The position numbers and the translations under genes are program-made. The notes under the pieces are model-generated. The model did no database searches. It had not been told where the DNA came from and worked only from the letters and a program-made list of their open reading frames with translations. Source: an uncultured Dehalococcoidales bacterium (GTDB taxonomy: Bacteria > Chloroflexota > Dehalococcoidia > GIF9 > AB-539-J10). From it: 59,758 nt of DNA. Below, one piece after another: positions 17,705 through 57,757 of the stretch. The first letter of the stretch is position 1. Each line of letters starts with the position of its first letter. Location of the stretch: contig CAZJGF010000001.1 of assembly GCA_964545665.1 (NCBI GenBank), positions 1 through 59,758 of the forward strand. Direction: 5' to 3'.

Positions 17705-18499
17705 ATGAAAATTGCTATTAGTGGCAAAGGAGGGGTGGGCAAAACACTGTTAGTGGCCTTCCTTTCCACTGTATTTGCTAAATCCGGCTATTCTGTCCTA
17801 GCGATAGACGCTGACCCCAACATTAACCTAGCGGCTGCTTTTGGCTTTCCTAACTCCGAGAAGATAGTACCTATATCCAAGATGGATGACCTTATCGAGG
17901 AAAGGACAGGAGCAAGACCTGGTCAAATGGCACCCTACTTCAGGCTAAATCCGAAAGTTGACGATTTGCCAGACAAATGCTCCCTAAGACGTGAAGGAAT
18001 TAAGATAATGGTCATGGGGCCGATTAAAGCAGCTGGCAGTGGTTGTTATTGCCCCGAAGGCGCTTTGCTTGAGGCCCTGGTTGCCCATTTGCTCCTCAAA
18101 GTAGATGAAGTGGTTATCTTAGATATGGAGGCTGGGATAGAGCATTTAACACGGGGGACAGCGAAGGGAGTAGATAAGCTGATTATAGTAGTGGAACCAA
18201 GTAGAAGAAGCGTTGAGACAGGCTATAGAGTAAGAGACTTAGCCCGAGAGATAGGTTTGCACAATATTGGGGTAGTGGGCAATAAGATTCGAAACGAGAA
18301 GGAAAAGGATTTCCTTATTTCCAGCATGGCGGACTTTGAATTCCTCGGATTCATCCCTTACGACGAAGGCGTAGCGGAGGCTGACATTACCGGTTTTCCC
18401 CTCATTGATTCTAGCAAAAGGGTTATGAGAGAGGTGGAGGACATTGCTGCTCGGCTTGGGGTTGTTAAATTGAAAACTGTTGGCGAGCTGGCAAGTTGA
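17705..18499 (+). CDS. cooC: CooC/AcsF-family Ni-insertion ATPase for CODH/ACS
   Basis: Deviant Walker A GKGGVGKT at the N-terminus and a CxC metal motif (GSGCYCPEG). 264 aa, at the head of the CODH/ACS operon. Confidence 0.85.
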
Positions 18500-18527
18500 A
18501 AATCACGAATTAAGGAAGGAGATTGCT

Positions 18528-20291
18528 ATGGCATACGATGCAACAAAACTGAAGGATTGGCAGATTTCGGAAGCGGCTGAAGAAAACATGCCAACTCTCG
18601 ATGAGTGGCGGGGGAGACTGGGCCTGGAGAAGGACGAGATTATTCCCTACGGAAGACTATGCAGGCTGGATTTCATGAAGATTATTGAGCGTCTTAAAGA
18701 CAAGCCGGACGGCAAGTACGTCGAGGTGACTGCTATAACTCCTACGCCACTGGGCGAAGGGAAAACGACGACCACTATGGGCATCTTAGAAGGTATGGGC
18801 AAGCGGGGCAAGAATGTGGGCGGTTGTATACGTCAGCCCTCCGGTGGTCCAACTATGAATATCAAGGGGACTGCTGCTGGGGGAGGCAATGCGCTACTTA
18901 TTCCCATGACCGAATTCTCCATGGGGCTTACTGGTGACATCAACGATATCACCAATGCGCATAACCTAGCTATGGTGGCACTTACTGCGAGGATGCAGCA
19001 TGAGCGTAACTACAACGACGAAGAACTGGCCAAGCGGAGCAGGATGCGCCGCCTGAACGTTGACCCTACGCGAGTGGAGATGGGCTGGGTAATGGATTTC
19101 TGTGCTCAGAGCCTCAGGAACATCGTCGTAGGTCTCGGTGGTCGCATGGATGGCTACCCAATGCAGTCCAAATTCGGTATTAGTGTGGGCTCTGAGCTTA
19201 TGGCTATGCTATCTATAGTCAGGGATCTGGCAGATCTGCGTCAAAGAATGGACGGAATTACTGTAGCCTTCGATAGGGATGGTAATCCTGTTACTACGGG
19301 CGATCTAGAAGTGGGAGGTGCCATGACTGCTTGGATGCGCAACGCCATCAACCCCACACTGATGTGCACGGTGGAGTATCAACCTTGCATGGTGCATGCT
19401 GGTCCCTTTGCCAACATCGCCGTGGGGCAATCCTCCATCATCGGCGACCGCATCGGGCTGAAGATGTTTGATTACCATGTAACTGAGAGCGGCTTCGCCG
19501 CAGATATCGGGTTTGAGAAATTCTGGAATGTCAAGTGTCGCTACAGCGGGCTAAAGCCCCATGTGTCGGTACTTACCACTACTATCAGGGCGCTGAAAAT
19601 GCACGGTGGCGGGTCCAAGGTGGTGGCGGGGCTGCCCTTGCCCGAGGCTTACACCAAAGAGGATATGGGGCTCTTGGAGAAAGGCATTCCCAATATGCTG
19701 CACCACATCAACACGATCAGGACATCGGGCATCAACCCCGTGGTGTGTATCAACTCCTTCCACACTGACACTAAGGAGGAGATTGCCGTGGTGCGCAAGG
19801 CAGCCGAGGCGGCTGGGGCACGTTGTGCGTTCAGCGAGCACTGGCTCAAGGGTGGCGATGGTGCCCTGGAACTGGCAGACGCCGTAATGGAAGCCTGTGA
19901 AGAGAAGAACGATTTCAAATTCCTTTACCCTATGGAAATGAAGCTGCGAGAGCGGGTCGATAAGATCGCCAAGGTGGTCTACGGAGCCGATGGCGTATCC
20001 TGGACTTCTGATGCTGAGGCCAAGGCCAAGATGGTTGAAAGCGACTCAAAATATGATGAATACGCTACCATGATGGTGAAGACCCACCTGAGCTTGACGC
20101 ACGACCCCGCCATTAAGGGTACGCCTAAGGGATGGAGCTTGCCCATTCGCGACGTCTTGATCTACTCCGGGGCGAAATTCCTCTGTCCCTGCGCTGGCGC
20201 CATCAGCCTTATGCCGGGGACAAGCTCTGACCCGGCTTTCAGGAGAGTGGACATAGATACTAAGAGTGGTAAGGTGCAGGGGCTATTCTAG
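18528..20291 (+). CDS. fhs: Formate--tetrahydrofolate ligase
   Basis: Classic Fhs blocks ([28 protein letters not shown]-like regions, C-terminal MPGL-type tail). ATG 18528 after AAGGAAGGAG is preferred to the TTG at 18480, which overlaps cooC. Confidence 0.95.
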
Positions 20292-20341: not shown

Positions 20342-21001
20342 TTGTTGGTAAAAGCCAAGAATATTTGCTTGACTATTGATGGTAAACAGGTGGCAGCTGT
20401 CGAAGGTGACAGAGTGTTATGGGCAGCTTTGGATAATGACATCTACATCCCGAATCTCTGTGCCATCCGGGAGGCATCAGAGCCTTTTGCTTCCTGTCGT
20501 CTTTGCTTTGTGGAAATAGAAGGTGAGGATAGGCCTGTTACAGCCTGCACTACGCCTGTGGCCGAAGGCATGGTGGTTAATACCAAAGGGGCAAAGGCCT
20601 TAAAGCTAACTCGCACTGGTTTCGAGTTGCTCTTAGCCAATTTGCCTCTAGACTGTGCCCATTGCCCCAAAAGCGGTTCTTGTGAAATTCAAAAGATCGC
20701 CAAGCATTTAAGGGTAAAGCTCACCTCAAAGAGGTTCAGGAAGACACTGCGTGAGCTACCCATAGATTCTAGCAGCCCTGTATTTATCTATGATCCTAAC
20801 AAGTGTGTGCTCTGCGGCAAGTGTGTTTGGATATGCCAGGAAAAGTTAGGCATAGGAGCTATTGGATTCGCCCACCGTGGATTCCAGCGAATTGTTACCA
20901 CTTTTGCCGATGAGCCTATTGGCGAATCCCGGTGCCAAGGCTGTGGAGAGTGTGTTAAGGTTTGTCCTGTTGGTGCTTTAGTATTTAAAGGCGGAAATTG
21001 A
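20342..21001 (+). CDS. Stand-alone FeS protein equivalent to the N-terminal domain of NuoG/HydA/FdhA ([2Fe-2S] plus [4Fe-4S] clusters)
   Basis: 219 aa, collinear with residues 1-210 of the FdhA at 37019: IDGK..., IPNLC...CRLC [2Fe-2S], CAHCPKSGSCE, CVLCGKCVWIC, CQGCGECVKVCPVGAL. No catalytic domain follows. The start codon is uncertain (TTG, no clear SD). Confidence 0.75.
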   Translation: MLVKAKNICLTIDGKQVAAVEGDRVLWAALDNDIYIPNLCAIREASEPFASCRLCFVEIEGEDRPVTACTTPVAEGMVVNTKGAKALKLTRTGFELLLANLPLDCAHCPKSGSCEIQKIAKHLRVKLTSKRFRKTLRELPIDSSSPVFIYDPNKCVLCGKCVWICQEKLGIGAIGFAHRGFQRIVTTFADEPIGESRCQGCGECVKVCPVGALVFKGGN

Positions 21002-21060: not shown

Positions 21061-21945
21061 ATGATTATTATAGGCGAGAACATACATGTTATAGCCAGAG
21101 CAGTTTCCACGGCGATAAAGGAGAGGGATGCCAAGCCAATTCAGGATTTGGCTAAGGCTCAAGCCGAGGCCGCGGTGGATTACATAGACGTGAATGTTGG
21201 TTACTTAAGAAAAGATACCGAGGAAACCATGACATGGATAGTCAACACAATTCAAGAGGTTACTGATTTGCCTTTATCCATAGATACTATGAATCCTGCA
21301 GCCATGGAAGTAGGTCTTAAGCTTTGCAAGAAAAAACCCTTGCTTAATTCCGCTTCAGGAAAGACCGACTCTAAAGAGCAGATGCTCCCGTTAGCAAAGA
21401 AATATAACTGTGATGTAGTTATTTCGGTGATTAACGATAAAGGTATGCCTGCTGAAGGTGATTCAAAGTTGGACAGCATCATGGATACAGTGGCTTACGC
21501 TAACGATCTTGGAATTCCCAATGAGGATATTTGGGGTGACCCCATAGCCCTCCCCGTAAGCACTGCTGGTGAGGGACAGAAGAATGCCTTGGCAACTTAT
21601 GAATTCATAGAGATGCTTCCTGAAGCTTTGCCCGGGCTTAAATCAACGGTAGGGCTTTCGAATATATCTAACGGGGCACCTGAAGAACTTAGGCCTCTGC
21701 TTAACCATGTTTACTTGATAATGTTGGCTAGGAAAGGACTCTATTCATCAATTCACGATGCCTTGGATAAGGATATTATGGGCATATCCAAGGGCGGGAA
21801 GGAGAATCTAGTTGACCTCGTCTACAGAACGTGGGATGGGGAGGACATAGACTTTTCTTCCCTATCCCAGGAGCAAATAGACTACGTCAAGACGACCAAG
21901 GTCCTCACAGGTGAAGTCCTCTATTCGGATGCCTGGCTTGAGTAA
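21061..21945 (+). CDS. acsE: Methyl-THF:corrinoid/iron-sulfur protein methyltransferase
   Basis: Pterin-binding TIM-barrel protein that starts MIIIGENIH and has GLSNISNG near the C-terminal half. It sits directly upstream of the CFeSP small subunit. Confidence 0.85.
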   Translation: MIIIGENIHVIARAVSTAIKERDAKPIQDLAKAQAEAAVDYIDVNVGYLRKDTEETMTWIVNTIQEVTDLPLSIDTMNPAAMEVGLKLCKKKPLLNSASGKTDSKEQMLPLAKKYNCDVVISVINDKGMPAEGDSKLDSIMDTVAYANDLGIPNEDIWGDPIALPVSTAGEGQKNALATYEFIEMLPEALPGLKSTVGLSNISNGAPEELRPLLNHVYLIMLARKGLYSSIHDALDKDIMGISKGGKENLVDLVYRTWDGEDIDFSSLSQEQIDYVKTTKVLTGEVLYSDAWLE

Positions 21946-21957
21946 GGAGGTTTGATA

Positions 21958-22875
21958 ATGGAGTATAAAGCACCAGTTGAAGCATACACTGGAGTAGTTA
22001 GGGAGGAAACTATTGGGACGGGGGAGAAAGCCCTAAAGCTTGGAGGGGAAAACATGCTTCCTTTACATTTCTTTGATGAAGGTTCATTCCCTAATGCGCC
22101 AAGCTTCGCCTTGGAGATATTGGATATGGAGCCTACAGATTGGCCAGAACACTTAGTTGAGACCTTTAAAGATGTGGTATCCGATCCAGTGAAGTGGGCC
22201 AGGAAATGTGAGGAATTTGGTGCGGATGCGGTCAGCATTTTTCTCTTAAGCACTGATCCAGCAGAGAAGGACAGCCCTGCGGATGAAGCGGCAGCACTGG
22301 TAAAAGAAGTGGCTGAGTCAATAAGCATCCCTGTGCTGGTGTACGGCTCTGGGGATGATAAGAAGGATGCTGAGGTTCTCCCCAAGGTTGCTGAGGTGTG
22401 CGACGGGATGAATCTCCTTCTAGGTCCGGTGCTTAAGGAAAACTACGAAGTTGTCGGGAGGGCAATTCTAGAGCATGGACATAAAGCCTGGGCTGAGAGT
22501 CCTTTGGATATCAATTTGCTTAAGGAGTTGAATGTAAAACTGTGTCATTTCCTGCCTCCAGAGAGAATTGTAATCGATCCAGAATCCACAGCGCTGGGCT
22601 ATGGCTTTGAATATGGCTTCACTCTAATGGAAAGGGTGAAGCAGCTTGGTGTAATTATTAAGGATAGCATGACCCAGATGCCCATGATAGCGAATTTAGG
22701 AAGGGAAGTCTGGAAGACAAAGCAAGCCAAGGAGAGCGCAAAGCAAGGCTTGCTGTTTGAGGCAATGACGGCCTTAGGACTTCTTTTAGCCGGGGCAAAT
22801 ATCCTTGTATTGAGGCATCCGGAAAGCATAAAGCTAGTGAAAGAAACTGTTGGAGGCAAAGCATGGCAGAAGTAA
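21958..22875 (+). CDS. cdhD: Corrinoid/iron-sulfur protein small subunit (ACDS delta)
   Basis: About 305 aa, lying between acsE and the CODH gene, with the typical AcsD/CdhD N-terminus (YKAPVEAYTGVV.E..IG). ATG 21958 lies 8 nt after AAGGAGG. Confidence 0.85.
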   Translation: MEYKAPVEAYTGVVREETIGTGEKALKLGGENMLPLHFFDEGSFPNAPSFALEILDMEPTDWPEHLVETFKDVVSDPVKWARKCEEFGADAVSIFLLSTDPAEKDSPADEAAALVKEVAESISIPVLVYGSGDDKKDAEVLPKVAEVCDGMNLLLGPVLKENYEVVGRAILEHGHKAWAESPLDINLLKELNVKLCHFLPPERIVIDPESTALGYGFEYGFTLMERVKQLGVIIKDSMTQMPMIANLGREVWKTKQAKESAKQGLLFEAMTALGLLLAGANILVLRHPESIKLVKETVGGKAWQK

Positions 22876-25181
22876 AAGAACTAGTAAAACAACTAACCAG
22901 GAAGGAACAGGAAATTCGGGAACTGATAAAAGCGGACATCCCCTGGGAGCCAGTAGGGCCTACTCCCATGCCTGAAATCCCGGATCTCAGATCATGGGAT
23001 ATGCGGCTTCTCAAAACGTATGCGCCTTGGTATGCTCCCTTCTGTGATTTGTGCTGTCTCTGCACCTATGGCAAGTGCGATCTCAGTCAGGGGAGAAGAG
23101 GGGCTTGTGGTCTTGATATAGCCACTCAACAAGGGAGGATAATTCTCCTTGCTTGCTTGATGGGGTGCTCTGCTCATGCGGCTCATGCCGGGCACATCCT
23201 GGAATTCCTGATAGAAAAGCACGGCCCGGATAAGAAGATAGACTTGGGCCCATTTGTTGATCTGGAGGCACCAAACATAAGGACGGTTACGGGACTAAAG
23301 CCTGAGACTTTAGGCGACCTTAAGATAGCTATAGAGTATGTCTACAGGGAAATCGCCCATCTTCTTGATTCCACCCATACCGGGCAGGAGGGAGCTGCTC
23401 TGGATTACGAGTCCAAAGCCTTGCATGCCAGCATGCTGGATCACGTAGGCATGGAGGTGGCTGATATCGCTCAGATTGTGGGATTCGATTTCCCCACTTC
23501 GGTTGCTGATACCCCTTTGGTGGATATGGGGTGGAACTCAATTGACAAATCGAAGCCGGTGATCTTGCTAGTTGGGCATAACCCAGCTACTTCATGCACT
23601 CTCATTGATTACCTGCGGGAAAATGACCTTTATGACAAAGTTGAGGTAGCTGGCATCTGTTGCACTGCCCTGGAGACAACAAGATATTCTGATAGAGCAA
23701 AAATTGTAGGCCCTCTTTCGCGGCAACTTTTCTTTGTCCGGACGGGGATTGCCGATGTCATCATGACCGATGAGCAGTGTATCAGGACTGATATGCCCAT
23801 AGAGGCAGACAAGGTTGACTCACGAGTTATCGCCTGTTTGGACAAGGCCATGTATGGACTTGAGGAAGCCAGCGACAGGGAAGTAGATGGACTGGTAAAA
23901 GAAATGGTGGAGGATAAGAAGCATTTCGCCATTCTAGACCCTAAAAAGGCGGCGGAGGTAGCAGCGAAAGTTGCAATGGAGATTGCGCCTCAGAGGAGGA
24001 AGGAATGGATAGCAGAAGAAGAGGCCATAGAGCTAGCTAAGAAATGCACCAATTGCGGTATGTGTGAGAGAGTATGTCCCAATCTTTTCTCTATCGGCGA
24101 TGGTATAACTGAGCTTGCCAAGGGTAATCTTGACCTGATAAGGCAGCAGTTCAATCTGTGTATTGGCTGTGGTAAATGTGAGCAAGAGTGCCCGAACGAT
24201 GTTCCCATCTTTAAGATAATGCAGATAGCAGCGAGCAAGGAGACCTGGAAGATAAGGGCTGGGCGCGGTGCTGTAATGGATACCGAGATAAGGAATGTGG
24301 GAGCACCCATAACTTTGGGCACGATCCCTGGTGTCCTCGCTTTCGTTGGCTGCTCTAACTATCCCGATATAGACGACGTTGCCGACATGGTATATGAGTT
24401 TGCCAAGAGGAAATATATCGTGGTTCTCACCGGTTGTGCTGCTATGGTGGCTGGGATGAAGAAATTTGAGGATGGCAAGACCGTATATGAACTGTTTCCC
24501 CCTGATTTTGATGCCGGCGGGGTAGTGAATGTTGGCTCCTGTGTTTCCAATGCCCATATTACTGGGGCAGCAATAAAGATAGCTAACATCTTCGCTGCTC
24601 TCCCGTTAAGAGCAAACTACGAAGTGATGGCCGATTACGTTCTTAATAGAGTAGGTGCTTGCGGAATAGCCTGGGGAGCGATGTCCCAGAAGGCAGCTTC
24701 CATTGGCACAGGGTGCAACAGGCTAGGTATCCCGGTGGTCCTGGGCCCTCACTCCTCCAAATATAGAAGGCTGTATCTCTCAAGAAATGAGGAGGATGAC
24801 TGGAGAGTAATGGATGCCAGGAAGAGGGAAATTGTCGATAGCGGGGAGCCTTCCCCTGAGCACTTAGCTTATGCGGCAGAGACAAAAGAAAAAGCCATGG
24901 TGATGATCCCCAAACTTTGCATAAGGAAGAACGATACCCCTCAAGGAAGGTCGATAAAGCTTAATCACTATGTCTCTCTATATAAGAAGTATATGGGAGG
25001 TGGGCTTCCTGAGGACCTTCACCTCTTTGTCAGAAGGGATGCTGACATCCCACTAGTGTACAAGAAGGAAGTAAGAGCATACTTGCAGCAAATTGGCTGG
25101 CAGCCTAAGGAACCTGTGGGATTGCCTACCTTGATTGGAACTTATCCCAGCAAGGTTCCTTTGGATGCCGTGATACATTAG
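22863..25181 (+). CDS. cdhA: CODH catalytic subunit, archaeal ACDS-alpha type
   Basis: 772 aa with an internal 2x[4Fe-4S] ferredoxin insert (CTNCGMCERVCPN ... CIGCGKCEQECPN). That insert distinguishes CdhA from the shorter bacterial AcsA/CooS. A CdhB-like gene follows. The start overlaps the cdhD stop. Confidence 0.9.
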   Translation: MAEVKELVKQLTRKEQEIRELIKADIPWEPVGPTPMPEIPDLRSWDMRLLKTYAPWYAPFCDLCCLCTYGKCDLSQGRRGACGLDIATQQGRIILLACLMGCSAHAAHAGHILEFLIEKHGPDKKIDLGPFVDLEAPNIRTVTGLKPETLGDLKIAIEYVYREIAHLLDSTHTGQEGAALDYESKALHASMLDHVGMEVADIAQIVGFDFPTSVADTPLVDMGWNSIDKSKPVILLVGHNPATSCTLIDYLRENDLYDKVEVAGICCTALETTRYSDRAKIVGPLSRQLFFVRTGIADVIMTDEQCIRTDMPIEADKVDSRVIACLDKAMYGLEEASDREVDGLVKEMVEDKKHFAILDPKKAAEVAAKVAMEIAPQRRKEWIAEEEAIELAKKCTNCGMCERVCPNLFSIGDGITELAKGNLDLIRQQFNLCIGCGKCEQECPNDVPIFKIMQIAASKETWKIRAGRGAVMDTEIRNVGAPITLGTIPGVLAFVGCSNYPDIDDVADMVYEFAKRKYIVVLTGCAAMVAGMKKFEDGKTVYELFPPDFDAGGVVNVGSCVSNAHITGAAIKIANIFAALPLRANYEVMADYVLNRVGACGIAWGAMSQKAASIGTGCNRLGIPVVLGPHSSKYRRLYLSRNEEDDWRVMDARKREIVDSGEPSPEHLAYAAETKEKAMVMIPKLCIRKNDTPQGRSIKLNHYVSLYKKYMGGGLPEDLHLFVRRDADIPLVYKKEVRAYLQQIGWQPKEPVGLPTLIGTYPSKVPLDAVIH

Positions 25182-25195
25182 AAAAGGAGGGGAAA

Positions 25196-25750
25196 ATGAG
25201 TGCAGTAATACCGCTTCATCGAGTCAATGTTCTAACCGGAATAAAGTCAGCCAGGGTGATAGAGGACGCCGCACAGTATGCCAACTTGCTCGAAAAAGCA
25301 AAAAGGCCTCTACTGGTGCTTGGTCCTCTGCTATCCGAATGGTCACTTGACGGCAAGCTGGCGATCGAATATGCCGAGGAGATAGCCAAAGCTGCCAATA
25401 TCCCTATATGTGCTACGGCTCACGTTAAGGGCAAGATGGTGGAATTGGGGATGAAGCCTGACAGCGTTTATGACGCTGTAGAGATAGTAAACCACCTAAA
25501 AGATCCTGAATGGCAAGGGGTTAGGAAAGAAGGAAACCACGACCTAGTTATCTTCTTTGGCATAAGGAGCGACCTTGAAGAACAATGCCTTTCTGTCCTT
25601 AAACATTTTGCCTTTAAGCACTTAATAACCATGACCTTGGATAAATATTACTTCCCCAATGCGAATTATTCCCTTCCCAATTTCAAGAGGGAAAAGCAAT
25701 GGAAGGCATTCTTAGAAAGCCTAATAGACAGCTTGAAGAAAGGAGATTAA
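25196..25750 (+). CDS. cdhB: ACDS epsilon subunit
   Basis: 184 aa directly after cdhA. It is collinear with CdhB as I remember it (KAKRPLL, KAANIPI.AT, L.DPEW.G....GN.DLVI..G). Confidence 0.8.
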   Translation: MSAVIPLHRVNVLTGIKSARVIEDAAQYANLLEKAKRPLLVLGPLLSEWSLDGKLAIEYAEEIAKAANIPICATAHVKGKMVELGMKPDSVYDAVEIVNHLKDPEWQGVRKEGNHDLVIFFGIRSDLEEQCLSVLKHFAFKHLITMTLDKYYFPNANYSLPNFKREKQWKAFLESLIDSLKKGD

Positions 25751-25753
25751 GGT

Positions 25754-27004: not shown

Positions 27005-27107
27005 GACCGTTTGAGCAAAGCGAAGGAATCCCTGAGCTGTAAATAAGAGAGAAAGGTAGCCCTCGTCCATGCTATGCTTTGTCCTGGCGAGGGGCAGGAG
27101 GTTTGTT

Positions 27108-32756: not shown

Positions 32757-32813
32757 TGTGTGCTTAGCAATAAATAAGCCGGGGATTAGGGACTTGTACA
32801 GGAGGTGACAACG

Positions 32814-47676: not shown

Positions 47677-48156
47677 ATGACTGTAGCGCTAAATGAGTTG
47701 GATTCCAAATTTAAATATGATGTGGCTGAAGAGCCCGGAGGAGAAAACATTAAGCTTTGTTTTGCCTGTGGTCTCTGCACCGCAAGCTGCCCAGTTGCGG
47801 ATATTGATCCGGAGTATAACCCTCGAAAGATAATTCATATGGTTCTCTTAGGGATGAGGGAGGCAGTGCTTTCTTCTAACTTTCCCTGGCTTTGCACTCA
47901 GTGCTATACATGTCAGGCTCACTGTCCTCAAAATGTAAACTTCTCTGATGTAATGAAGGCATTGAGGAGTATGGCGGTTAAGGAAGGATATGTCCATCCT
48001 TCCTTTGCCGATCAAATAAAGGAGATTGACACCTTCTCGCAAAAGCTACGTCATCAAATGGTGCTATCCATCGTGGCTAGGAAATCCGAAGAACTAAAGG
48101 CGGACGTAGAGAAACTTGCTAAGGAAGCACTGGAGAAGGCGAGAAAAGAAGTCTAG
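47677..48156 (+). CDS. hdrC: HdrC-like 2x[4Fe-4S] protein
   Basis: CFACGLCTASCPV ... CTQCYTCQAHCPQ, with the helical spacer typical of HdrC. 159 aa. Confidence 0.75.
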   Translation: MTVALNELDSKFKYDVAEEPGGENIKLCFACGLCTASCPVADIDPEYNPRKIIHMVLLGMREAVLSSNFPWLCTQCYTCQAHCPQNVNFSDVMKALRSMAVKEGYVHPSFADQIKEIDTFSQKLRHQMVLSIVARKSEELKADVEKLAKEALEKARKEV

Positions 48157-51100: not shown

Positions 51101-52611
51101 TAAATCGGGTGGTGGTAGCATCGTGCACCCCTCGGACACATGAGCCTTTGTTCCAGGAGACTATCAGAGAAGCCGGCTTGAATAAATACCTTTTTGAGTT
51201 TGCCAATATCCGTGACCAATGCTCCTGGGTTCACATGCATGAGCCAGAGAAGGCTACTGAGAAGGCGAAGGATTTGCTAGGAATGGCAGTGGCAAAGGTA
51301 AGGCTGAAAAAACCACTTAAGCCTCTGTCTCTCCCAGTTAATCACTCTGCTTTGGTTATTGGGGGAGGAATAGCAGGGATGGTAAGTGCCTTAAACTTGG
51401 CAGAGCAAGGTTTCGAAGTCCATCTTATTGAGAGGAGCAGCGAGCTCGGTGGTATGGCAAGGAAAATACATCATACTATTGATAATGGAGATGTTCAGAC
51501 TTTTCTCGGCGATTTAATTAAGAAGGTTAAGGAACATACTAAGGTTAGGGTCTATTACAATACTTGGATTGTAGATGCCTATGGATATGTGGGTCACTTC
51601 ACCACCGAGATAATGAGATATCGAGGCAGGGTAGTAGAGAAGATAGAGCATGGCGCGACTATCATTGCCACCGGGGCCCAGGAGTATAAGCCGAACGGTG
51701 AGTACCTCTATGGAAGAGACCCAAGGGTGCTTACCCAACTTGAACTTGAAGATGAGATAGCCAGAGAGAGTCCGGACATTATCAACTGCGATAACGTAGT
51801 GATGATTCAGTGTGTGGGCTCTCGCAATGGTCAACGACCTTATTGCAGCCGGGTGTGCTGCAATCAAGCAATTAAGAATGCTCTAAAGCTTAAGGAAATA
51901 AGGCCTGAAATGAACATTTACATCCTCTATCGGGATATGAGGACGTATGGATTCTATGAGGAACATTACCGGGAGGCAAGACAACAAGGGGTTGTCTTCC
52001 TCCGCTATGAGCCAGAAGATAAGCCTCGGGTGAGTCAAGAGAGAAAGAGTGGCCAGCTTTTGATAAGGGTTGAGAGCAAGGATCCGGTGCTGGGGGAGAA
52101 AGTAGCTATTGATGCTGATATTCTTGCCCTATCTGTGCCCATGGTTCCCCCGGAGGAAGCAAGAGAGCTTGCAATGCTCTACAAGGTGCCTTTAAACGAG
52201 GATGGCTTCTTCCTAGAGGCACATGTAAAGCTTCGTCCGGTGGATTTCGCCACCGATGGGATCTTTGTCTGCGGGCTTGCCCATGCCCCTAAGTCGATAG
52301 AGGAAAGCATCGCTCAGGCTAAAGCAGCCGCCTCTCGAGCAACCACTATATTAGCCAAGGATACCGTTACGGCTGAGGGCATTGTTGCCTCCGTAAACGA
52401 AAATATTTGCTCAGGTTGTGGCATTTGTGAGGCTCTCTGCCCTTATGGGGCTATCACTATTGATAGGGATAAGAATGTAGCCAAAGTTAACGAAGCTTTG
52501 TGTAAGGGTTGTGGCACTTGCTGTGCCGCTTGCCCTTCAGGAGCTGCCCAACAAAGGAGTTTTACCTCGGAGCAGATTTCAGCCATGCTGGATGCTATTT
52601 TGGAGGTTTAG
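48169..52611 (+). CDS. Giant HdrA-GltD-HdrA fusion flavoprotein (HdrL-like)
   Basis: 1480-aa uninterrupted ORF. Order of parts: HdrA N-part (VVGGGIGGMQAALDLA, LDKTFPTLDCSMC, CTGCAECAEVCP); GltD-like insert at ~48640-49860 (CPAGINIQGY, ICPAPCEEKCNR, IIGSGPAGLTCAHYL, GGMLYVGIPEYRLP, IIGGGDVAIDSAR, GVFSGGDCQTGP); rest of HdrA (CLACGICSECMQC, WIQCVGSRDE..YCSSVCC); the IGVFICHCG domain; a second HdrA unit (VIGGGIAGMVSALNLA, MIQCVGSRNG..YCSRVCC); and a terminal CSGCGICEALCP / CKGCGTCCAACP. Confidence 0.9.
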   Translation: MESKNSLVGAALVVGGGIGGMQAALDLAESGYHVYLVEKSPAIGGAMAQLDKTFPTLDCSMCILSPKLIECGRHPNIELLSCSELVEVNGEPGDFKAKVLKHPRYVDVARCTGCAECAEVCPVELPNEFEQDLASRKAIFRPFAQAFPNAFAIEKRERPPCTLTCPAGINIQGYVALIAKRKYREALSLIREWVPIPGVLGRICPAPCEEKCNRKLLEEPVAIRVLKRFAADMVEDELSPPEIEEKEERVAIIGSGPAGLTCAHYLRREGYQVTVFEALPVVGGMLYVGIPEYRLPKNVVEKEIESIKRLGIEIKTNTPIGAEIGIKDLLEQGYEAVFISVGAHRSQRLGVPGENAERVIHGVDFLRDINLGKEVKTKGKVVIIGGGDVAIDSARSVLRLGADEVVVLYRRTRVEMPAREEEVKAAEEEGVKIEYLVAPVEILCENGKVTGVKCTRMQLGEPDVTGRKRPIPIPGSEFDLKVDMVIPAIGQTPDLSFVENSGINISSRGTIQVDPMTLETGCEGVFSGGDCQTGPSIAVEAVAAGARAAESIIRYINHQDLKEGRTVERKLSGVSFIPFGMARESRQKMPTIPVEERKVSFKEIELGFPEDMAIREASRCLACGICSECMQCVAACKANAIDHNMREEIVQLNVGSVVLCPGFDEFDPGPLFNYGYRRYSNVVTSIEFERMLSASGPYQGELKRPSDGRPPQRIAWIQCVGSRDESLNRGYCSSVCCTYAVKQAIIAKEHVPLELEETIFFMDIRTQGKDFDKFYRRGEEEGIEFMRARVYRIEESDGTGSLLLKYVGEDDKPSTREFDLVVLSVGLQPSSTAIELAKKLGIQLNKYGFCHTNTFSPVETSRPGIFAAGAFQGPKDIPETVMQASGAAGSVSALLAPARNTLIKKKQYPPERDVSGEEPRIGVFICHCGINIGGVVNVPDVTDYAKTLPGVVYAEDNLYTCSQDTQERIKAMAKEHGLNRVVVASCTPRTHEPLFQETIREAGLNKYLFEFANIRDQCSWVHMHEPEKATEKAKDLLGMAVAKVRLKKPLKPLSLPVNHSALVIGGGIAGMVSALNLAEQGFEVHLIERSSELGGMARKIHHTIDNGDVQTFLGDLIKKVKEHTKVRVYYNTWIVDAYGYVGHFTTEIMRYRGRVVEKIEHGATIIATGAQEYKPNGEYLYGRDPRVLTQLELEDEIARESPDIINCDNVVMIQCVGSRNGQRPYCSRVCCNQAIKNALKLKEIRPEMNIYILYRDMRTYGFYEEHYREARQQGVVFLRYEPEDKPRVSQERKSGQLLIRVESKDPVLGEKVAIDADILALSVPMVPPEEARELAMLYKVPLNEDGFFLEAHVKLRPVDFATDGIFVCGLAHAPKSIEESIAQAKAAASRATTILAKDTVTAEGIVASVNENICSGCGICEALCPYGAITIDRDKNVAKVNEALCKGCGTCCAACPSGAAQQRSFTSEQISAMLDAILEV

Positions 52612-52612
52612 A

Positions 52613-53032
52613 ATGGCCAAGAATGAATTTGAGCCGAAAATACTAGGTTTCTGTTGTAACTGGTGTTCGTATGCTGGTGCTGACCTTGCTGGTGTCTCGC
52701 GGTTCCAATATCCCCCCAATATAAGGATAATAAGGGTGATGTGCTCCGGCCGGGTAAGCCCTGCTTTTGTTCTGAAGGCATTAGCGGTTGGATTCGATGG
52801 TGTGCTCATCGCTGGCTGCCATCCAGGGGATTGCCATTATATATCCGGCAACTATAAAACGAGAAGAAGGGCGGAATTCACAAAAAGGCTTTTGGAGCAG
52901 TTTGGAATGGAACCAGAAAGACTGAGATTGGAGTGGATCTCAGCATCTGAGGGAATGAAATTTGCTGAGGTGGTGAGAGACTTCACCAACAAAATAAAGG
53001 AGTTAGGACCAAATTCACTGAAAAGGAGCTGA
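52613..53032 (+). CDS. mvhD: MvhD/FlpD-like protein (copy 2)
   Basis: KILGFCCNWCSYAGAD ... IIRVMCSGRV ... GVLIAGCHPGDCHY. ATG 52613 lies 2 nt after the stop of the giant gene and 7 nt after GGAGG. Confidence 0.85.
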   Translation: MAKNEFEPKILGFCCNWCSYAGADLAGVSRFQYPPNIRIIRVMCSGRVSPAFVLKALAVGFDGVLIAGCHPGDCHYISGNYKTRRRAEFTKRLLEQFGMEPERLRLEWISASEGMKFAEVVRDFTNKIKELGPNSLKRS

Positions 53033-53036
53033 GCAG

Positions 53037-53689
53037 ATGGCAAGAAGATGGAAAATAGAACTAGCCTTTTATTGGGCAGCCACCTGTGGAGGCTGTGATG
53101 TGGCAACTTTGGACATTGGAGAGAAAATCCTCGATGTGGTGGACATTGCCGATATTGTCCTTTGGCCTGTGGCGATGGACTTCAAGTACAGAGACGTAGA
53201 GAAGATGGAGCCAAAAAGCATAGATCTGTGTTTGTGTAACGGCGCGGTAAGAAGTCCGGAGCATGAGGAAATAGCCAAGATGCTAAGGGAAAAACCAAAG
53301 GTGATGGTAGCATTTGGAAGTTGCGCCTGCTTCGCGGGATACCGGGGCTTGGGAATGTAGCAAATAAAGAGCAAATATTTGATGTGGCATACCAAGAGAC
53401 ACCTTCCACAGTGAACCCAGATTCTATTGTGCCCAAGACAGAATGTGAAGTGGCGGGAGAGATTTTGACACTTCCTGAGTTGTACGACACGGTGAAGACA
53501 CTGGATCAAACAGTGGATGTTGATTATTACGTGCTTGGTTGGCCCCCGGTTGTAGACGGTATAAACGACGCTGTGGGAATAATCGCCAAGTACGCAGAAA
53601 CCGGGGAGCTGCCTCCAAAGGGAACAGTTGTCGCTTTCGACAAGACTGTATGTGATGAGTGTCCACCCAGCTTCACTTCTGTGCCTTAG
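53037..53689 (+). pseudogene. mvhG: [NiFe]-hydrogenase small subunit (MvhG-like): frameshifted, mutated and 3'-truncated
   Basis: Frame 0 reads ATCGGCDVATLD ... AFGSCACFAG and then stops. The expected continuation GIPGLGNVAN... is in the -1 frame from the GGG run at 53336-53338. The conserved PGCPP is LGWPP (TGG at 53540-53542). The ORF ends soon after VCDECP, so the C-terminal cluster-binding part is missing. Confidence 0.7.
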
Positions 53690-54807
53690 GAGCCCCGGAC
53701 TTTATTGTAGGCCCAAGAGCTGAAGCAGCGAAGAGAAACATAATCGGAGTAGTAGAAAAAGCAGGCACGGAATTGGGGCTGGCGGTGATACATGCTAGGG
53801 GATATGCACAGAGAATACAGGAGATAGTGGGAGGAAAGGCAACACATCCAGTATGTGGCCTGCCCGGGGGTATGTCAAAGGCTCTCTCGAATGAGGAGAG
53901 GGATGAGATAGAGGGTGAGGCCAAGAAGCTAGTTGATTTTGGCAAGAAAAGCCTTGAGATATTTGATGACCTTGTGTTGAAGAACAAAGAATATGTGGAT
54001 TTGATCACAGGTGATACTTATTACCATGAGACGTATTACATGGGCATGGTAGATGAAAATGAGAAAGTAAATTTCTATGAAGGAAAAATAAAGGTGGTGG
54101 ATCCGGATGGAAAGGAATATGCTAGATTTGATGCCAAGGACTACTTGGACTATATAAGCGAAGCAGTGGAGCCTTGGTCGTACCTAAAGTTTCCTTATCT
54201 AAAAGGGGTTGGATGGAAAGGGCTCGTAGATGGGAAGGAGAGTGGCATTTATAGACTGAATTCACTGGCAAGGCTGAATGTTGCCAGTGGCATGGCTACT
54301 CCTAGAGCACAAGAAGCATACACGAGAATGTATGACTTCTTCGGTAAAAAGCCAGTCCATAGCACCCTTGCGTTCCACTGGGCCCGCCTCATAGAGAATC
54401 TATATGCTGCTGAGAGATGCTTGGAGCTCATTCAAGACCCGGAGACAAGTTCTCAAGATATAAGAGGCGACTTAGGAGAGCCTGGCGAGGGGCTAGGTTG
54501 CGTAGAAGCTCCTCGTGTTACACTCTTCCATCACTACTGGGCAGATGAAAAAGGAATAACCAAGAAAGTTAACCTAATAGTCGCCACAGCTCAGAATAAC
54601 GGCCCGATGTGTATGTCAATTAAGAGAGCGGCGCAGAGCTTAATAAAGAATTGGAAAGTAGAAGAAGGCTTACTAAATATGGTAGAAATGGCTTTTAGGG
54701 CTTACGATCCTTGCCTTGCATGCGCAACTCATACGCTTCTAGGACAGGTGCCCCTAAAAATCGTCATAGTTGGCCCAGACAGAAAGGAGTTGCAAAGGCT
54801 AGGTTGA
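53659..54807 (+). pseudogene. mvhA: [NiFe]-hydrogenase large subunit (MvhA-like), 5'-truncated
   Basis: It reads from LHFCALGAPDFIVG to the C-terminal Ni-ligand motif DPCLACATH. The first ~110 aa, including the N-terminal R.CG.C Ni-binding motif, are absent. The frame is closed immediately upstream by TGA TGA (53653-53658). Confidence 0.7.
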
Positions 54808-54940
54808 AGCATCCCATACGACAACTGGCTGACGGCTGACAGCTTAGAGATGGAGACTCTGGTTTCTAGACTGGTGCAAAATTGGACAAAGTGGTATTCT
54901 GTATTGTCACCTGCTCTAATACTCTTGCCAGAGTAGCAGA

Positions 54941-57757
54941 TCAAGACGCTAATGTGATCTCTCTCATCTCGACCGCGTCATCTGCCTCAGCCATAACCTC
55001 AGCCGCTCTACCCGCTGCTCCTGAGGCCTGAGTTACAGAATCTGGGATATCCCGCGGGCTGTGAACATAGCCGCAAGCAAAGATGCCGCGCTTTGTGGTA
55101 TCTAGCGGTTGCAGCAATTTATTTGGAATCTTCACGAAGCCATTTTCATCTAACTCTATGCCTAAGATTTCTGCCAGTTCCTCGCTAATTTGAGGAATCA
55201 TCGCTTGGGCAAGAACCACCAGTTCTGCCTCAAGGCTCTTTATTTCCCCGGTGGTGGTGTCCTCGTACGAAATAACAGGGTTATCGTTCTTGGGGTTGAC
55301 TTCGATCCTGCCGGGACGTCCCCTGATATATGTTGCGTTGTACTCCTTCTTAGCCCTAGCGATATATTCCTGAAACCTCTTACCCACAGCCCTCATGTCC
55401 ATATAGAGAATTGTGGACTTCGTTCCTGGCTCATGTTCATATGCCATCATGGCTTCCTTGGTGGCATGCATGCAGCAGACGCTGGAACAATATGCTTTGT
55501 TCCTAAGATCGCGGGAGCCAACGCATTGGATGAAGGCTATATTGTGAGGGATTTTCCCATCTGAAGGGCGCCTAAGTTCTCCCATAGTAGGTCCTGACGC
55601 TGCAGTTAGCCTCTCGCATTCCATTGCTGTAATAACGTTCTTTATCTTTCCATAGCCATATTCTTCAATGCTTGAGATATCATGAAAATTGAGTCCTGTG
55701 GCGAGGATTATTGCTCCTACATCGAGGCGAATATGCTCATCCTGCATGTGATAATCAATCGCATTTGCCTCACACCGTTTCTCACATTCGTGACATTCGA
55801 TGCACCCTTCTATCTGCCCAGCAAGGCAGCGAGAAGCCTCCTCCACAGCTTCTTCTGGAGTGTAGCCCAAAGTCACCTCACCAAAGCCTCTCATCCTCTC
55901 CTCCACAGGCTCCTTTTCCATCTCGACTCGCTTTTTGAACGGAAAGCGTTTTTGCCTGTCCGCTACCTCCTCCTCGGAAAGCTTCTCCGGCTTCCTTTCC
56001 TCCTCAGACTCAATGGGTTTACCTTGCAAATACAGGTCTATGGAGCGAGCTGCCCTGTTACCTGCTGCTATGGCATCGATAACGAAAGCAGGACCTGTAA
56101 CTACATCCCCGCCGGCAAATACTCCCTCGATGTTAGTTGCCCCGGTATTAGGATCAATTTCTATTGTGCCTCTGTTGGAGAGTGATACGCCAAGCTTCGC
56201 GGCAAACTCTGTTTTCGGATTTTGACCAAGGGCAGTGATTACTGTGTCCACTGGAGCAGAAAACTCAGAGCCTTCGATAGGAATAGGTCGGGGACGCCCG
56301 CTCGCATCCAACTCCCCGAGTTCCATTCTCATACACTCCACCCTGGCGATTCTCCCATCGTCCCGGCAAAAGCGGGTTGGGGTAGTCAGGAAATCAATCT
56401 CTATCCCCTCCTCCTCGGCTGCCTTTACCTCTTCCGCCGAGGCTGGCATTTCGGCGCGGGAACGGCGGTACACAATGTTCACCTCTTCGGCACCAAGGCG
56501 CTTTGCCAGTCGAGCGCAGTCAATAGCTGTGTTCCCCCCACCAATTACTGCTACTTTTTTACCTACCTTCACCTTCTCCCTAAGGTTTACAGCACGAAGA
56601 AATCCTATTCCCTCGAACACCCCGGAAAGGTTTTCCCCCTCCACTCTGAGTCGCGTTCCGCTGGGAGCTCCGGTAGCGAGGAAAAGGGCATCATAACCTT
56701 TGTTTATTTCTTCAAGGGCAATATCCTTGCCAACTTCTACCCCTGTCCTTATTTCCACGCCAAGCTTTTGGATGTAACCTATCTCCTTGCGCACAATCTC
56801 CTTAGGAAGGCGATATTCAGGAATGCCATAGTGGAGCATTCCCCCAGGCTCAGGGAGAGCCTCGAAAACAGTCACCTGGTACCCCTTAAGGGCAAGGTCA
56901 TTAGCAGCAGCAAGACCTGCAGGCCCTGAGCCTACGATTGCTACCTTCTTGTCCCTTTTTGTAATAGCTGGAACTTCAAGCTTGTCAATATCCACTTGAT
57001 CTGCAGCGAACCTCTTTAAGTCGCGGATGGCTATAGGCTCATCAATTTGACCACGATTGCAGGCTTCCTCGCAGGGAGCGTAGCAAACTCGGCCGCAGAC
57101 AGCAGGGAGAGGATTTGTATCTCTTATGAGCTTGTAAGCTTCCTGGAACTTCCCTTCGGCTATGAGCTTAACATACCCGAGCACATTGGTATGAGCAGGG
57201 CAGGCATCCTTGCAAGCTGCTTTACATGGCCTCTCCTCTATCTTAGCGACGGCATACTTCTTAGGGACGGCTTGAGGGAAGGGAATGAAGATGGCTTTTC
57301 TCTCGCCAAGCCCCTGGTCAAATTCGCTCGGCATGATAACCGGGCATCCCTCCGCGCAAAGACCACAGCCAGTGCATTTATCCCAATCAACATAAGGTGC
57401 TCTCCTCTTCACCTTAGCCTGGAAACTTCCAACCTCTCCTGAGACTTCTTCGACTTGGGAATAGGTCAAAAGTTCTATATTTGGATGCTGGCTTGCTTCG
57501 ATCATCTTGGGGGCTAAAATACACATAGCACAATCGTTAGTAGGAAAGGTCTTATCTAGCTGTGCCATCCTCCCTCCGATGCTGGGCGTCTTTTCCACCA
57601 AATACACCTTAAACCCCATATTAGCCAGATCGAGAGAAGCTTGAATCCCAGCTATACCCCCCCCGATTACCAACATTGAGTTATTCGTGGTCTCACCCCC
57701 TTTGTAATTCAGAATGTTTTCCTGTCTTACCAGTTTTCGTGGCTCAGCGTACACCAC
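54941..57757 (-). CDS. HdrA::GltD fusion flavoprotein (single HdrA unit with a GltD-like insert)
   Basis: 938-aa ORF collinear with the first ~900 aa of the giant protein at 48169: IGGGIAGIQASLDLA, LDKTFPTNDCAMC, CTGCGLCAEGCP, then the insert at ~56017-57235 (CPAHTNVLGY, VCYAPCEEACNR, IVGSGPAGLAAANDL, GGMLHYGIPEYRLP, VIGGGNTAIDCAR, GVFAGGDVVTGP), then FIQCVGSRDL..YCSSVCC. The start is uncertain (GTG 57757 or ATG 57676). Confidence 0.85.
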   Translation of the reverse strand: MVYAEPRKLVRQENILNYKGGETTNNSMLVIGGGIAGIQASLDLANMGFKVYLVEKTPSIGGRMAQLDKTFPTNDCAMCILAPKMIEASQHPNIELLTYSQVEEVSGEVGSFQAKVKRRAPYVDWDKCTGCGLCAEGCPVIMPSEFDQGLGERKAIFIPFPQAVPKKYAVAKIEERPCKAACKDACPAHTNVLGYVKLIAEGKFQEAYKLIRDTNPLPAVCGRVCYAPCEEACNRGQIDEPIAIRDLKRFAADQVDIDKLEVPAITKRDKKVAIVGSGPAGLAAANDLALKGYQVTVFEALPEPGGMLHYGIPEYRLPKEIVRKEIGYIQKLGVEIRTGVEVGKDIALEEINKGYDALFLATGAPSGTRLRVEGENLSGVFEGIGFLRAVNLREKVKVGKKVAVIGGGNTAIDCARLAKRLGAEEVNIVYRRSRAEMPASAEEVKAAEEEGIEIDFLTTPTRFCRDDGRIARVECMRMELGELDASGRPRPIPIEGSEFSAPVDTVITALGQNPKTEFAAKLGVSLSNRGTIEIDPNTGATNIEGVFAGGDVVTGPAFVIDAIAAGNRAARSIDLYLQGKPIESEEERKPEKLSEEEVADRQKRFPFKKRVEMEKEPVEERMRGFGEVTLGYTPEEAVEEASRCLAGQIEGCIECHECEKRCEANAIDYHMQDEHIRLDVGAIILATGLNFHDISSIEEYGYGKIKNVITAMECERLTAASGPTMGELRRPSDGKIPHNIAFIQCVGSRDLRNKAYCSSVCCMHATKEAMMAYEHEPGTKSTILYMDMRAVGKRFQEYIARAKKEYNATYIRGRPGRIEVNPKNDNPVISYEDTTTGEIKSLEAELVVLAQAMIPQISEELAEILGIELDENGFVKIPNKLLQPLDTTKRGIFACGYVHSPRDIPDSVTQASGAAGRAAEVMAEADDAVEMREITLAS

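Follow-up and report, generated by a model that had tools for sequence, protein, structure and literature searches.

The window analysed here is one whole contig of about 60 kb (CAZJGF010000001.1, 59,758 bp) from a metagenome-assembled genome (MAG) of an uncultured, Dehalococcoidales-like member of the Chloroflexota. Pfam and NCBIfam scans of all large open reading frames (ORFs) place a block of Wood-Ljungdahl (WL) genes together with flavin and iron-sulfur (FeS) modules at positions 17705-57757. A sequence-only reading of this DNA had listed fhs, two metF genes, metV, acsE, cdhABCDE, fdhA, three cooC-type genes, two NuoE/NuoF pairs and two MvhD within the block, and the scans bear out this inventory. 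The arrangement of these genes is not due to chance. The block is probably a conserved WL supercluster in which each low-potential redox step has its own adjacent soluble flavin/FeS module. Genes lie on the forward strand unless stated otherwise, and related loci are referred to by their L numbers.

CODH/ACS genes, the methyl branch and the flavoprotein core

The block combines an archaeal-type, five-subunit carbon monoxide dehydrogenase/acetyl-CoA synthase (CODH/ACS) with a bacterial tetrahydrofolate (THF) methyl branch. The genes cdhDABCE (21952..28472; Pfam, NCBIfam) encode CdhD (delta, 21952-22875; NCBIfam score 344 against a cutoff of 280), CdhA (alpha, 22863-25181; 1062 against 781), CdhB (epsilon, 25196-25750; Pfam CO_dh), a short CdhC of 416 aa (beta, 25754-27004; 539 against 356) and CdhE (gamma, 27069-28472; 535 against 306). 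The presence of all five Cdh subunits, with a CdhC that lacks the N-terminal domain of bacterial AcsB, marks the enzyme as the archaeal type.

The methyl branch is represented by formate-tetrahydrofolate ligase, Fhs (18480..20291; Pfam FTHFS, 707 bits over the full length), the methyl-THF:corrinoid/FeS protein methyltransferase AcsE (21061..21945; Pfam Pterin_bind, NCBIfam NF005719 at 221 bits), MetV (46079-46741; Pfam DUF5981) and two copies of MetF (both Pfam MTHFR). The first metF is divergently transcribed (39750..40673, reverse strand) and has an equal position in relatives L007, L170 and L171, while the second directly follows metV (46738-47649). The window contains no folD. Three CooC-like ATPases are encoded with the CODH: a CooC-type Ni-insertion ATPase at 17705..18499 (Pfam CbiA/ParA; P-loop GKGGVGK, CxC at residues 114/116) and two further CooC/AcsF-type proteins at 30930-31694 and 31696-32520 (Pfam AAA_31/CbiA). 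All three (17705, 30930, 31696) combine a MinD-type P-loop with a CxC motif; they gave no score with a dedicated CooC model, and their only NCBIfam matches were to MinD/ParA-type models, below cutoff.

The cdh genes are bracketed by what appears to be a core of the electron-bifurcating Bfu kind. Upstream lies a 219-aa FeS protein (20342..21001; Pfam Fer2_4, NADH-G_4Fe-4S_3 and Fer4) that resembles the N-terminal stem of BfuA/HydA; it has 2Fe-2S and 4Fe-4S clusters without a catalytic domain, and matches residues 4-207 of the bifurcating HydA 8a6t_A at 7e-49. Downstream, NuoE1, a BfuC-like 2Fe-2S subunit (28476..28988; Pfam 2Fe-2S_thioredx, 170 bits), is followed by NuoF1, a full-length Bfu-type B subunit (29002..30930; Pfam) with N-terminal 2Fe-2S, FMN and C-terminal 2x[4Fe-4S] domains. 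NuoF1 matches NfnB of NfnABC, StnB and HydB end to end (residues 23-607) at about 1e-225, against 2e-128 for the non-bifurcating FdsB, and with a Pfam Fer4 match at residues 559-607 it has the cofactor set of a BfuB.

This organisation is conserved. In a sample of 80 metagenome loci with CdhA at 74-95% identity, counted over those that could be evaluated, NuoE1 and NuoF1 lie directly 3' of cdhE in 28 of 30, and the 219-aa FeS protein directly 5' of acsE in 26 of 42. In some relatives (L095, L097, L106, L121), a 3-5 kb insert between cdhA and cdhB carries a NuoF-like gene that is about 50% identical to NuoF1, which ties a NuoF-type flavoprotein still more closely to CODH.

Modules with a GltD domain

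A second NuoE/NuoF set precedes the gene for formate dehydrogenase. It consists of NuoE2, which is FdsG/BfuC-like (33452..33907; Pfam 2Fe-2S_thioredx, NCBIfam formate dehydrogenase gamma at 148 bits), and a NuoF·GltD fusion of 1030 aa (33910..37002; placed by Pfam, PDB matches and alignment to NuoF1), whose true start is probably at 33922; this would give 1026 aa, and an exact 1026-aa product is on record. The fusion is a Bfu-type NuoF to about residue 555, with 60% identity to NuoF1 over this part. There the BfuB homology stops, and the C-terminal dicluster domain is replaced by a GltD/NfnB-type 2x[4Fe-4S]+FAD+NAD(P)H module (residues 556-1026) with the GltD Fer4_20 domain, so that the BfuB cofactor set is incomplete.

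The third gene, fdhA (37019..39697), encodes a Cys-type Mo/W formate dehydrogenase with a NuoG-like N-terminal FeS domain (NCBIfam Fdh-alpha, 881 against a cutoff of 666). FdhA aligns end to end with FdsA of R. capsulatus (6tg9_A) and keeps the Mo/W-bisPGD domains, the active-site Cys-His (ARLCHAPT) and the Arg (NPLRGQNNVQG) of metal-dependent formate dehydrogenases of the FdsA/FdhF type. It is thus predicted to be a catalytically intact formate dehydrogenase. The possibility that FdhA is an inert Stn-like domain, and the cassette a hidden Nfn, was rejected on the same alignment and residues. The NuoF·GltD fusion occurs in at least 120 clusters at 69% identity or more, and the NuoE-NuoF·GltD-FdhA cassette recurs in relatives L088 and L089. 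In the latter (L089:1-15871), a bacterial AcsB-type CODH/ACS and a [NiFe] hydrogenase occur together with MetV, MetF, DUF3786, NuoE, NuoF·GltD and FdhA; this FdhA was called as two pieces of 375 and 546 aa, probably through a selenocysteine codon.

At 48169..52611, the block encodes a 1480-aa protein (Pfam; PDB mapping to 5odc_A) which, with HdrA domains and a GltD-like NAD(P)H/FAD module in one polypeptide and mvhD behind it, is HdrL as judged from its domains. Mapped onto the solved HdrA structure (5ODC), residues 9-156 correspond to HdrA 144-291 and residues 626-843 to HdrA 293-511. Between them, residues 157-625 form a GltD/NfnB-type module that separates the two cluster motifs in the inserted ferredoxin domain, entering precisely between 291 and 293 of 5ODC. 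Residues 917-1480 form a second HdrA unit with N-terminal and C-terminal ferredoxin domains and no inserted ferredoxin domain. An adjacent pair of genes in relatives (909 and 562 aa) matches the two units from end to end with 49-51% identity, and thus HdrL is a fusion of two complementary HdrA paralogues and, by inference, an HdrA dimer in asymmetric, covalently linked form. The mvhD gene downstream (copy 2, 52511..53032; Pfam FlpD, 197 bits) probably has its real start near 52613, and the gene upstream of hdrL encodes an HdrC-like 2x[4Fe-4S] protein of 159 aa (47677..48156; Pfam Fer4_8/Fer4_17; two CxxCxxCxxxCP motifs) that scores 92 bits with the NCBIfam HdrC model, under its cutoff of 160.

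The same two HdrA sub-architectures are found, without the GltD insert, in a pair of separate genes. The first encodes a unit-1-like protein of 413 aa (42803..44044; NCBIfam HdrA2 positions 139-562) with the thioredoxin-reductase-like FAD domain and the inserted ferredoxin domain, 36% identical to HdrA·GltD homologues outside the insert. The second encodes a unit-2-like protein of 554 aa (44035..45699; Pfam, NCBIfam HdrA2, Cys motifs), which has the N-terminal HdrA domain, the FAD domain and the C-terminal 2x[4Fe-4S] domain but not the inserted ferredoxin domain, and is 30% identical over its full length to 560-aa HdrA partners in L172/L173. That the two ORFs are one HdrA split by a selenocysteine codon or a frameshift was rejected, because the two reading frames differ where they overlap, the same arrangement of two genes is seen in relatives and the products are different HdrA sub-architectures. 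The first mvhD (45638..46075; Pfam FlpD, 150 bits) overlaps the second gene. Since the 413-aa product is also an HdrA core, the block has five HdrA-type units in four genes, not the four units in three genes that had been counted before.

These genes form part of a 12-gene cassette, metF-HK-RR-RR-413-554-mvhD-metV-metF-hdrC-like-hdrL-mvhD, that is the same in relatives at 65-89% identity. HK is a histidine kinase with a cyclic-nucleotide (cNMP) domain (40806-41936; Pfam, cNMP-HisKA-HATPase), and the RRs are two single-domain response regulators (42001-42423 and 42392-42799; Pfam). The kinase, both receivers and the divergent metF are kept together in L007, L170 and L171. Another cNMP-binding-domain protein, of 162 aa, is encoded at 32805..33293 (Pfam cNMP_binding); no helix-turn-helix was detected in it.

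HdrL is widespread. The family comprises at least 120 full-length clusters (at 90% identity) with 58-100% identity, and GTDB species genomes contain over 600 homologous stretches, the closest matches being uncultured Dehalococcoidales at 79% identity. In bacteria, it is spread over the Chloroflexota, Desulfobacterota, Bacillota, Acidobacteriota, Planctomycetota, Bacteroidota, Spirochaetota, Thermotogota and others, and archaeal matches include Bathyarchaeia, Thermoplasmatota and Promethearchaeia. The gene context was compared in 79 loci with a reliable C-terminus. MvhD lies directly 3' of HdrL in 67 of 75 evaluable loci, MvhA follows HdrL(-MvhD) in 5 of 57, and MetV and MetF directly adjoin HdrL in 29 of 79 (25 downstream, 4 upstream), these last from several bacterial phyla and one Asgard archaeal MAG. 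A survey of gene order had been proposed as a check on the sequence-only reading; with 67/75 for HdrL-MvhD and 28/30 for cdhE-NuoEF, it returns strong conservation. Other HdrL homologues lie beside aldehyde/tungsten oxidoreductase genes, in Bam-like contexts and in archaeal MAGs, several with adjacent MvhGA (L006, L068, L073, L084; L064, L066, L071, L074, L078).

The third protein with a GltD module is an HdrA·GltD protein (938-aa ORF, 54941..57757, reverse strand; Pfam, PDB), which is 79% identical to L172_909. It is the equivalent of HdrL unit 1 as a separate gene, and its family, large in Dehalococcoidia, has proteins of about 910 aa. Among relatives at 77-79% identity, the operon of this gene reads CCG (HdrB-like)–HdrA·GltD–560-aa HdrA–(NfnA-NfnB, in one case)–MvhD–MvhG–MvhA–HycI. 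In the window the CCG protein, the 560-aa HdrA and MvhDGA are missing from its neighbourhood, and the gene faces a decayed hydrogenase. The one case with NfnA-NfnB is a 77% relative (L173:12448-14712), in which nfnA and nfnB stand as a canonical pair within the HdrA·GltD-HdrA-MvhDGA operon; a single operon thus has both classical Nfn and an HdrA-embedded NfnB-like module.

The GltD/NfnB-like module had been read as fused into three different scaffolds, and this holds: all three modules (residues 556-1026 of the 1030-aa, 157-625 of the 1480-aa and about 178-650 of the 938-aa protein) are intact, conserved and embedded in WL genes. They are mutually 46-51% identical and keep the cluster cysteines as well as the FAD and NAD(P)H motifs (GSGPAG, GGGxxAxD, YRRxxxEMPA). 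They belong to the circularly permuted subtype of Stn/NfnABC, and their best alignments are to the modules by which StnC, NfnA (of NfnABC), NfnB and NfnI-L bind NADP(H), which share GGGxxAxD and YRRxxxEMPA with them. As these motifs are common to the modules of Stn, NfnABC, NfnB and NfnI-L, NADP(H) is the likeliest ligand.

The hydrogenase that faces the 938-aa gene is an mvhG-mvhA pseudogene (53037..54807; Pfam fragments, and tblastn with the intact MvhG/MvhA of L005). MvhG residues 1-101 and 95-205 are in different frames, with a frameshift near 53340-53360. About 0.7 kb has been deleted, corresponding to MvhG 206-327 and MvhA 1-106, and with it the N-terminal Ni-binding motif was lost. MvhA 107-472 is still open at 67% identity to L005, a 72% relative. 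Although the frameshift could be an assembly artefact, and a look-up of a copy with more than 90% identity returned no record, the 0.7-kb deletion and the absence of the hydrogenase in relatives at 83-89% identity argue for real decay. Intact MvhGA follow the HdrL orthologue in L005, whereas the nearest relatives L170 and L171 (89% and 83% HdrL identity) have no hydrogenase after MvhD. This suggests that the Mvh hydrogenase is an accessory module that is being lost in the lineage. Its decay leaves NAD(P)H as the only recognisable soluble partner encoded in cis with HdrL-MvhD.

The absence of functional hydrogenase, HdrB, Rnf and Nfn from the window, as claimed by the sequence-only reading, was confirmed. 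No ORF of the window matches PF02754 (CCG/HdrB), and tblastn with three CCG proteins from relatives hit only the ferredoxin part of the HdrC-like gene (47677-48156). No Rnf was found among the window ORFs by Pfam or NCBIfam, and no protein with NAD_binding_1 or DHODB_Fe-S_bind that would be NfnA. A further 10 kb beyond the contig end was recovered from a JGI contig and scanned too. All that it encodes are regulators, acetyl-CoA synthetases and a TRAP transporter; CCG/HdrB, Rnf, NfnA and hydrogenase genes, which would have told against the sequence-only reading if they lay just outside the window, are absent from it as well. Because the window is a single MAG contig, a genome-wide lack of Rnf, Nfn or hydrogenase cannot be claimed.

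The surroundings of the block are of a different kind. A sugar-acid catabolic island occupies positions 1-15500, with the TRAP transporter DctP/Q/M, an altronate/galactarate dehydratase, a LarA N-terminal domain protein, a 2-hydroxyacid dehydrogenase, an HMGL-like enzyme, SDRs/epimerases and two C_GCAxxG_C_C proteins. Between this island and the block, immediately before the latter, is a gene for an MttB-superfamily methyltransferase (15550-17058; Pfam MTTB at 263 bits, NCBIfam TIGR02369 at 328 bits), which, given that the latter score is below the cutoff of 525, is probably a non-pyrrolysine member; it could supply methyl groups from a quaternary amine to the WL pathway. Beyond the block, on the reverse strand, a lone MnhB-domain gene (57877-58326, 149 aa) lies beside a 95-aa ORF with a weak Frankia_peptide match. 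The same pairing occurs on four independent contigs, and since the MnhB gene at 57877 stands alone in each, a role in an Mrp/Mbh membrane complex was rejected.

Electron flow and alternative readings

How the modules might work can be proposed for each of the three reductive steps. At the CO2/CO step, the Bfu-type core would serve the CODH/ACS that it brackets, with the HydA-stem-like FeS protein upstream and NuoE1/NuoF1 downstream. At the CO2/formate step, the Cys-type FdhA would sit on a NuoEF core with a grafted NfnB/GltD-type module, which is most likely an NADP(H) site. At the methylene-/methyl-THF step, MetVF would act with the HdrC-like ferredoxin, the two MvhD, the split HdrA pair (413 and 554 aa) and HdrL, a fused, asymmetric HdrA pseudo-dimer with the NfnB/GltD NAD(P)H module inserted in one half. 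NAD(P)H would deliver a hydride to the GltD FAD, from which electrons would pass over the two GltD clusters to the HdrA flavin and be split there. The high-potential branch would run over the HdrC-like protein, MetV and MetF to methylene-THF, and the low-potential branch over the C-terminal ferredoxin domain to ferredoxin. The reaction would be reversible, and go in the other direction when the pathway runs oxidatively. In this way each low-potential WL step would be connected with NAD(H), with NADP(H) and probably with ferredoxin through a dedicated soluble module.

It is tempting to go further and to see in HdrL-MvhD-HdrC-like-MetVF an NAD(P)H-dependent, ferredoxin-reducing methylene-THF reductase that works without HdrB and has the insert as its hydride entry port, and in NuoE-NuoF·GltD-FdhA an enzyme that splits NADPH electrons in an Nfn-like manner between CO2 (low potential) and NAD+ (high potential). 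Taken jointly, these two assignments are tentative and rather unlikely to be both correct. If they were, NuoE-NuoF·GltD-FdhA would make formate without ferredoxin and, with the Bfu core on the CODH/ACS, all three reductive steps of the WL pathway would be directly tied to pyridine nucleotides. The electron donor and the energetic coupling of methylene-THF reduction are an unresolved point in WL bioenergetics. Splitting of NAD(P)H electrons between methylene-THF and ferredoxin has long been hypothesised for the MetFV-HdrABC-MvhD complex of Moorella, and to our knowledge the second acceptor of that complex has never been identified. An NAD(P)H module is built into the HdrL-MvhD-MetVF cassette, which has no HdrB; the cassette is common and thus offers a concrete set of proteins for expression and assay. 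Dehalococcoidia are abundant in marine subsurface sediments, and their NADH/NADPH/ferredoxin balance bears on carbon turnover there.

Several points weigh against a supercluster with dedicated, working modules. Firstly, co-localisation is no proof of complex formation, and the assemblies are known here from genes alone; what is observed is the identity of the genes, their domain maps, intact motifs, synteny and distribution, and the composition of the complexes, their nucleotide specificity, bifurcation and direction are our inferences. The choice of NADP(H) over NAD(H), in particular, draws on motif homology only. Secondly, the C-terminal 2x[4Fe-4S] domain that NuoF·GltD lacks is absolutely conserved in bifurcating BfuB according to Schut et al. 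(PMC9304861), and the fusion may therefore not bifurcate to ferredoxin. Thirdly, the 554-aa HdrA lacks the C...CxxxCC cluster motif found in the other four units. Finally, the locus is partly in decay, with the 938-aa gene orphaned from its usual partners in a rearranged stretch; only one contig is at hand, and relatives carry HdrB-like proteins, NfnAB, Hyp genes and hydrogenases.

A plainer account would have no bifurcation at all. The cassette at 33452-39697 would be an FdsABG-like formate dehydrogenase for both NAD+ and NADP+, NuoE1/NuoF1 would pass electrons from CODH to NAD+, HdrL-MetVF would be a plain NAD(P)H:methylene-THF reductase, and the extra clusters would be wires. The end-to-end alignment of FdhA with an FdsA that does not bifurcate fits this, as does the loss of the Bfu dicluster domain from NuoF·GltD, and electron transfer from NADH to methylene-THF is exergonic, so that coupling is not needed (textbook potentials in PMC9586279). 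However, both NuoF1 and the fusion's NuoF portion score about 100 orders of magnitude better against bifurcating B subunits, the N-terminal 2Fe-2S domain included, than against FdsB/Nqo1. HdrA units and MvhD are hallmarks of bifurcating systems and would be superfluous in a simple reductase, and HdrL retains its C-terminal ferredoxin-type domain. Non-bifurcating enzymes throughout are therefore possible, if on the unlikely side.

The conservation of MvhD raises another alternative, that the system is driven by H2 or formate in trans. The MvhD pair would dock MvhAG or FdhAB encoded elsewhere, MetVF would be the acceptor as in MvhADG-Hdr, and GltD would be an auxiliary port. MvhD is kept beside HdrL in nearly all of the loci counted above although MvhA follows in few, both mvhD genes of the window are intact, and an ancestral arrangement with intact MvhGA exists. 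On the other hand, the hydrogenase encoded in cis has decayed here and is deleted in the nearest relatives, and MvhD is widely kept with Hdr proteins in organisms that have no Mvh (PMC2702500). We consider this improbable.

Least probable, and quite doubtful, is the proposal of the sequence-only reading itself, that the block is a bifurcation network wired to NAD(P)H, self-contained and undescribed, with GltD fusions as terminal modules in place of HdrB, hydrogenase, Rnf and Nfn: the three intact GltD modules, the missing modules in the window and the 10 kb downstream, and the closest relatives (83-89% identity), which are likewise without hydrogenase after MvhD2, speak for it, but the scaffolds belong to families that received their names in 2009 (HdrL) and 2022 (Bfu), orthologous HdrA·GltD operons in relatives have CCG, NfnAB and intact MvhDGA, the L005 HdrL is followed by intact MvhGA, and only 60 kb of the genome is seen, with hyp genes and antiporter-like subunits beside the same formate dehydrogenase cassette on a relative's contig. 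As GltD co-occurs with an HdrB-like CCG protein, NfnAB and intact Mvh hydrogenase in the orthologous operons, it is an additional NAD(P)H port rather than a substitute. The further argument that the usual terminal modules are missing or dead is a weak one, since MetVF is the obvious terminal module of the adjoining Hdr scaffold. The observations of the sequence-only reading are thus confirmed with minor corrections, while its interpretation is only partly supported, because the scaffolds are not undescribed: HdrL was named in 2009 (PMC2702500), an HdrA-NfnB insertion is known from ANME-1 (PMC9012536) and the Bfu types date from 2022 (PMC9304861).

Comparison with known systems

All electron modules of the block fall into the families HdrL, Bfu and type III methylene-THF reductase (MTHFR), each of which already has a name, and the block is not a categorically new system. 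The window is one of many near-identical public loci, and its sole unique feature is the decaying hydrogenase. What distinguishes it from described enzymes are variants that are uncharacterised and all widespread: HdrL with MetVF and without HdrB, a BfuB that carries GltD and is accompanied by a genuine FdhA, and Cdh surrounded by a Bfu core. As the sequence-only reading had supposed, no biochemical characterisation of the exact fusion forms was found in the literature or the PDB; the literature on them is genomic or proteomic, no PDB chain has the HdrA·GltD architecture, and no paper was found that combines Bfu, GltD and formate dehydrogenase.

A MetFV-HdrABC-MvhD complex has been purified from Moorella (cited in PMC5736913 and PMC9586279), and this type III MTHFR is known from Moorella thermoacetica and Sporomusa ovata (PMC9430772, cited in PMC5736913). 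As in these organisms, MetF, MetV, MvhD, an HdrA-type flavoprotein and an HdrC-type ferredoxin are encoded together in the block, and MetVF would be the high-potential acceptor of an Hdr-type module. In contrast, the window has no HdrB/CCG subunit, five HdrA-type units instead of one, and a dedicated NfnB/GltD NAD(P)H module inserted in HdrA. It also differs from MvhADG-HdrABC, as the window has no intact MvhA and MvhG.

HdrL was named in Desulfobacterium autotrophicum HRM2 for an HdrA/glutamate-synthase fusion followed by mvhD (Strittmatter et al., PMC2702500). It is also present as Sfum_0824 in Syntrophobacter fumaroxidans, where it is abundant in the proteome (PMC5947623), and adjoins WL and Fdh genes in Desulfurivibrio dismutans. 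The window protein shares with the original the large soluble HdrA, the NAD(P)H/FAD module resembling the glutamate synthase small subunit and the mvhD that always follows, often without MvhAG, and homologues were recovered from Desulfobacterota and other phyla at 44-79% identity. However, it is adjacent to metVF, while the original description tied HdrL to dsr or hdrABC genes, and it is a continuous Cys-only ORF, whereas copies in D. autotrophicum contain selenocysteine. In the also uncharacterised HdrA9-11 of ANME-1 (Chadwick et al. 2022, PMC9012536), an NfnB-like module of about 470-500 aa likewise interrupts the inserted ferredoxin domain of HdrA. Unlike these, the window proteins are bacterial and linked to THF-dependent MetVF, and HdrL is also fused to a second HdrA.

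For the formate dehydrogenase cassette, the closest comparison is with the Stn (StnABC) and NfnABC 'Nfn-Bfu' transhydrogenases (8OH5, 9N5U), which have been purified and their structures solved (PMC7483475, PMC10482914, PMC12018979). These too combine a NuoE/NuoF Bfu core with a circularly permuted GltD-type FAD module that binds NADP(H), and on their Bfu cores the GltD domains serve as sites for NADP(H) (PMC9304861, PMC10482914). In Stn and NfnABC, GltD is part of the A subunit, before a domain that bears formate-dehydrogenase/molybdopterin-oxidoreductase names, and there is no separate formate-oxidising FdhA. Here, GltD is at the C-terminus of the B subunit, where it replaces the dicluster domain, and the A subunit is a separate FdhA with catalytic residues. 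A formate dehydrogenase on a NuoE/NuoF Bfu-type core is also found in the electron-bifurcating Fdh-Bfu/HylABC-FdhF2 of Gottschalkia acidurici (PMC9304861), and like Type 1 Fdh-Bfu (PMC9304861) the FdhA of the window bears a NuoG-like cluster stem. Unlike them, the cassette has gained an NADP(H) module and lost the canonical BfuB C-terminal clusters, which makes bifurcation by NuoE2-NuoF·GltD-FdhA uncertain.

Finally, the Bfu family, for which Schut et al. (2022, PMC9304861) put forward Codh-, Fdh- and Nfn-Bfu types, includes a counterpart for the core around the cdh genes. Codh-Bfu is itself proposed and uncharacterised, and is based on four Firmicutes clusters in which a monofunctional CODH lies between genes for BfuB and for BfuA (PMC9304861). 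The block has the same layout, with CODH genes between BfuA-like and BfuB/C genes, and its core appears to be a CODH/ACS version of Codh-Bfu. It differs in that an archaeal-type CODH/ACS together with AcsE takes the place of the monofunctional enzyme, and in its occurrence in Dehalococcoidia. Together with the NuoF·GltD-FdhA cassette, the core extends the proposed Bfu repertoire into this class.

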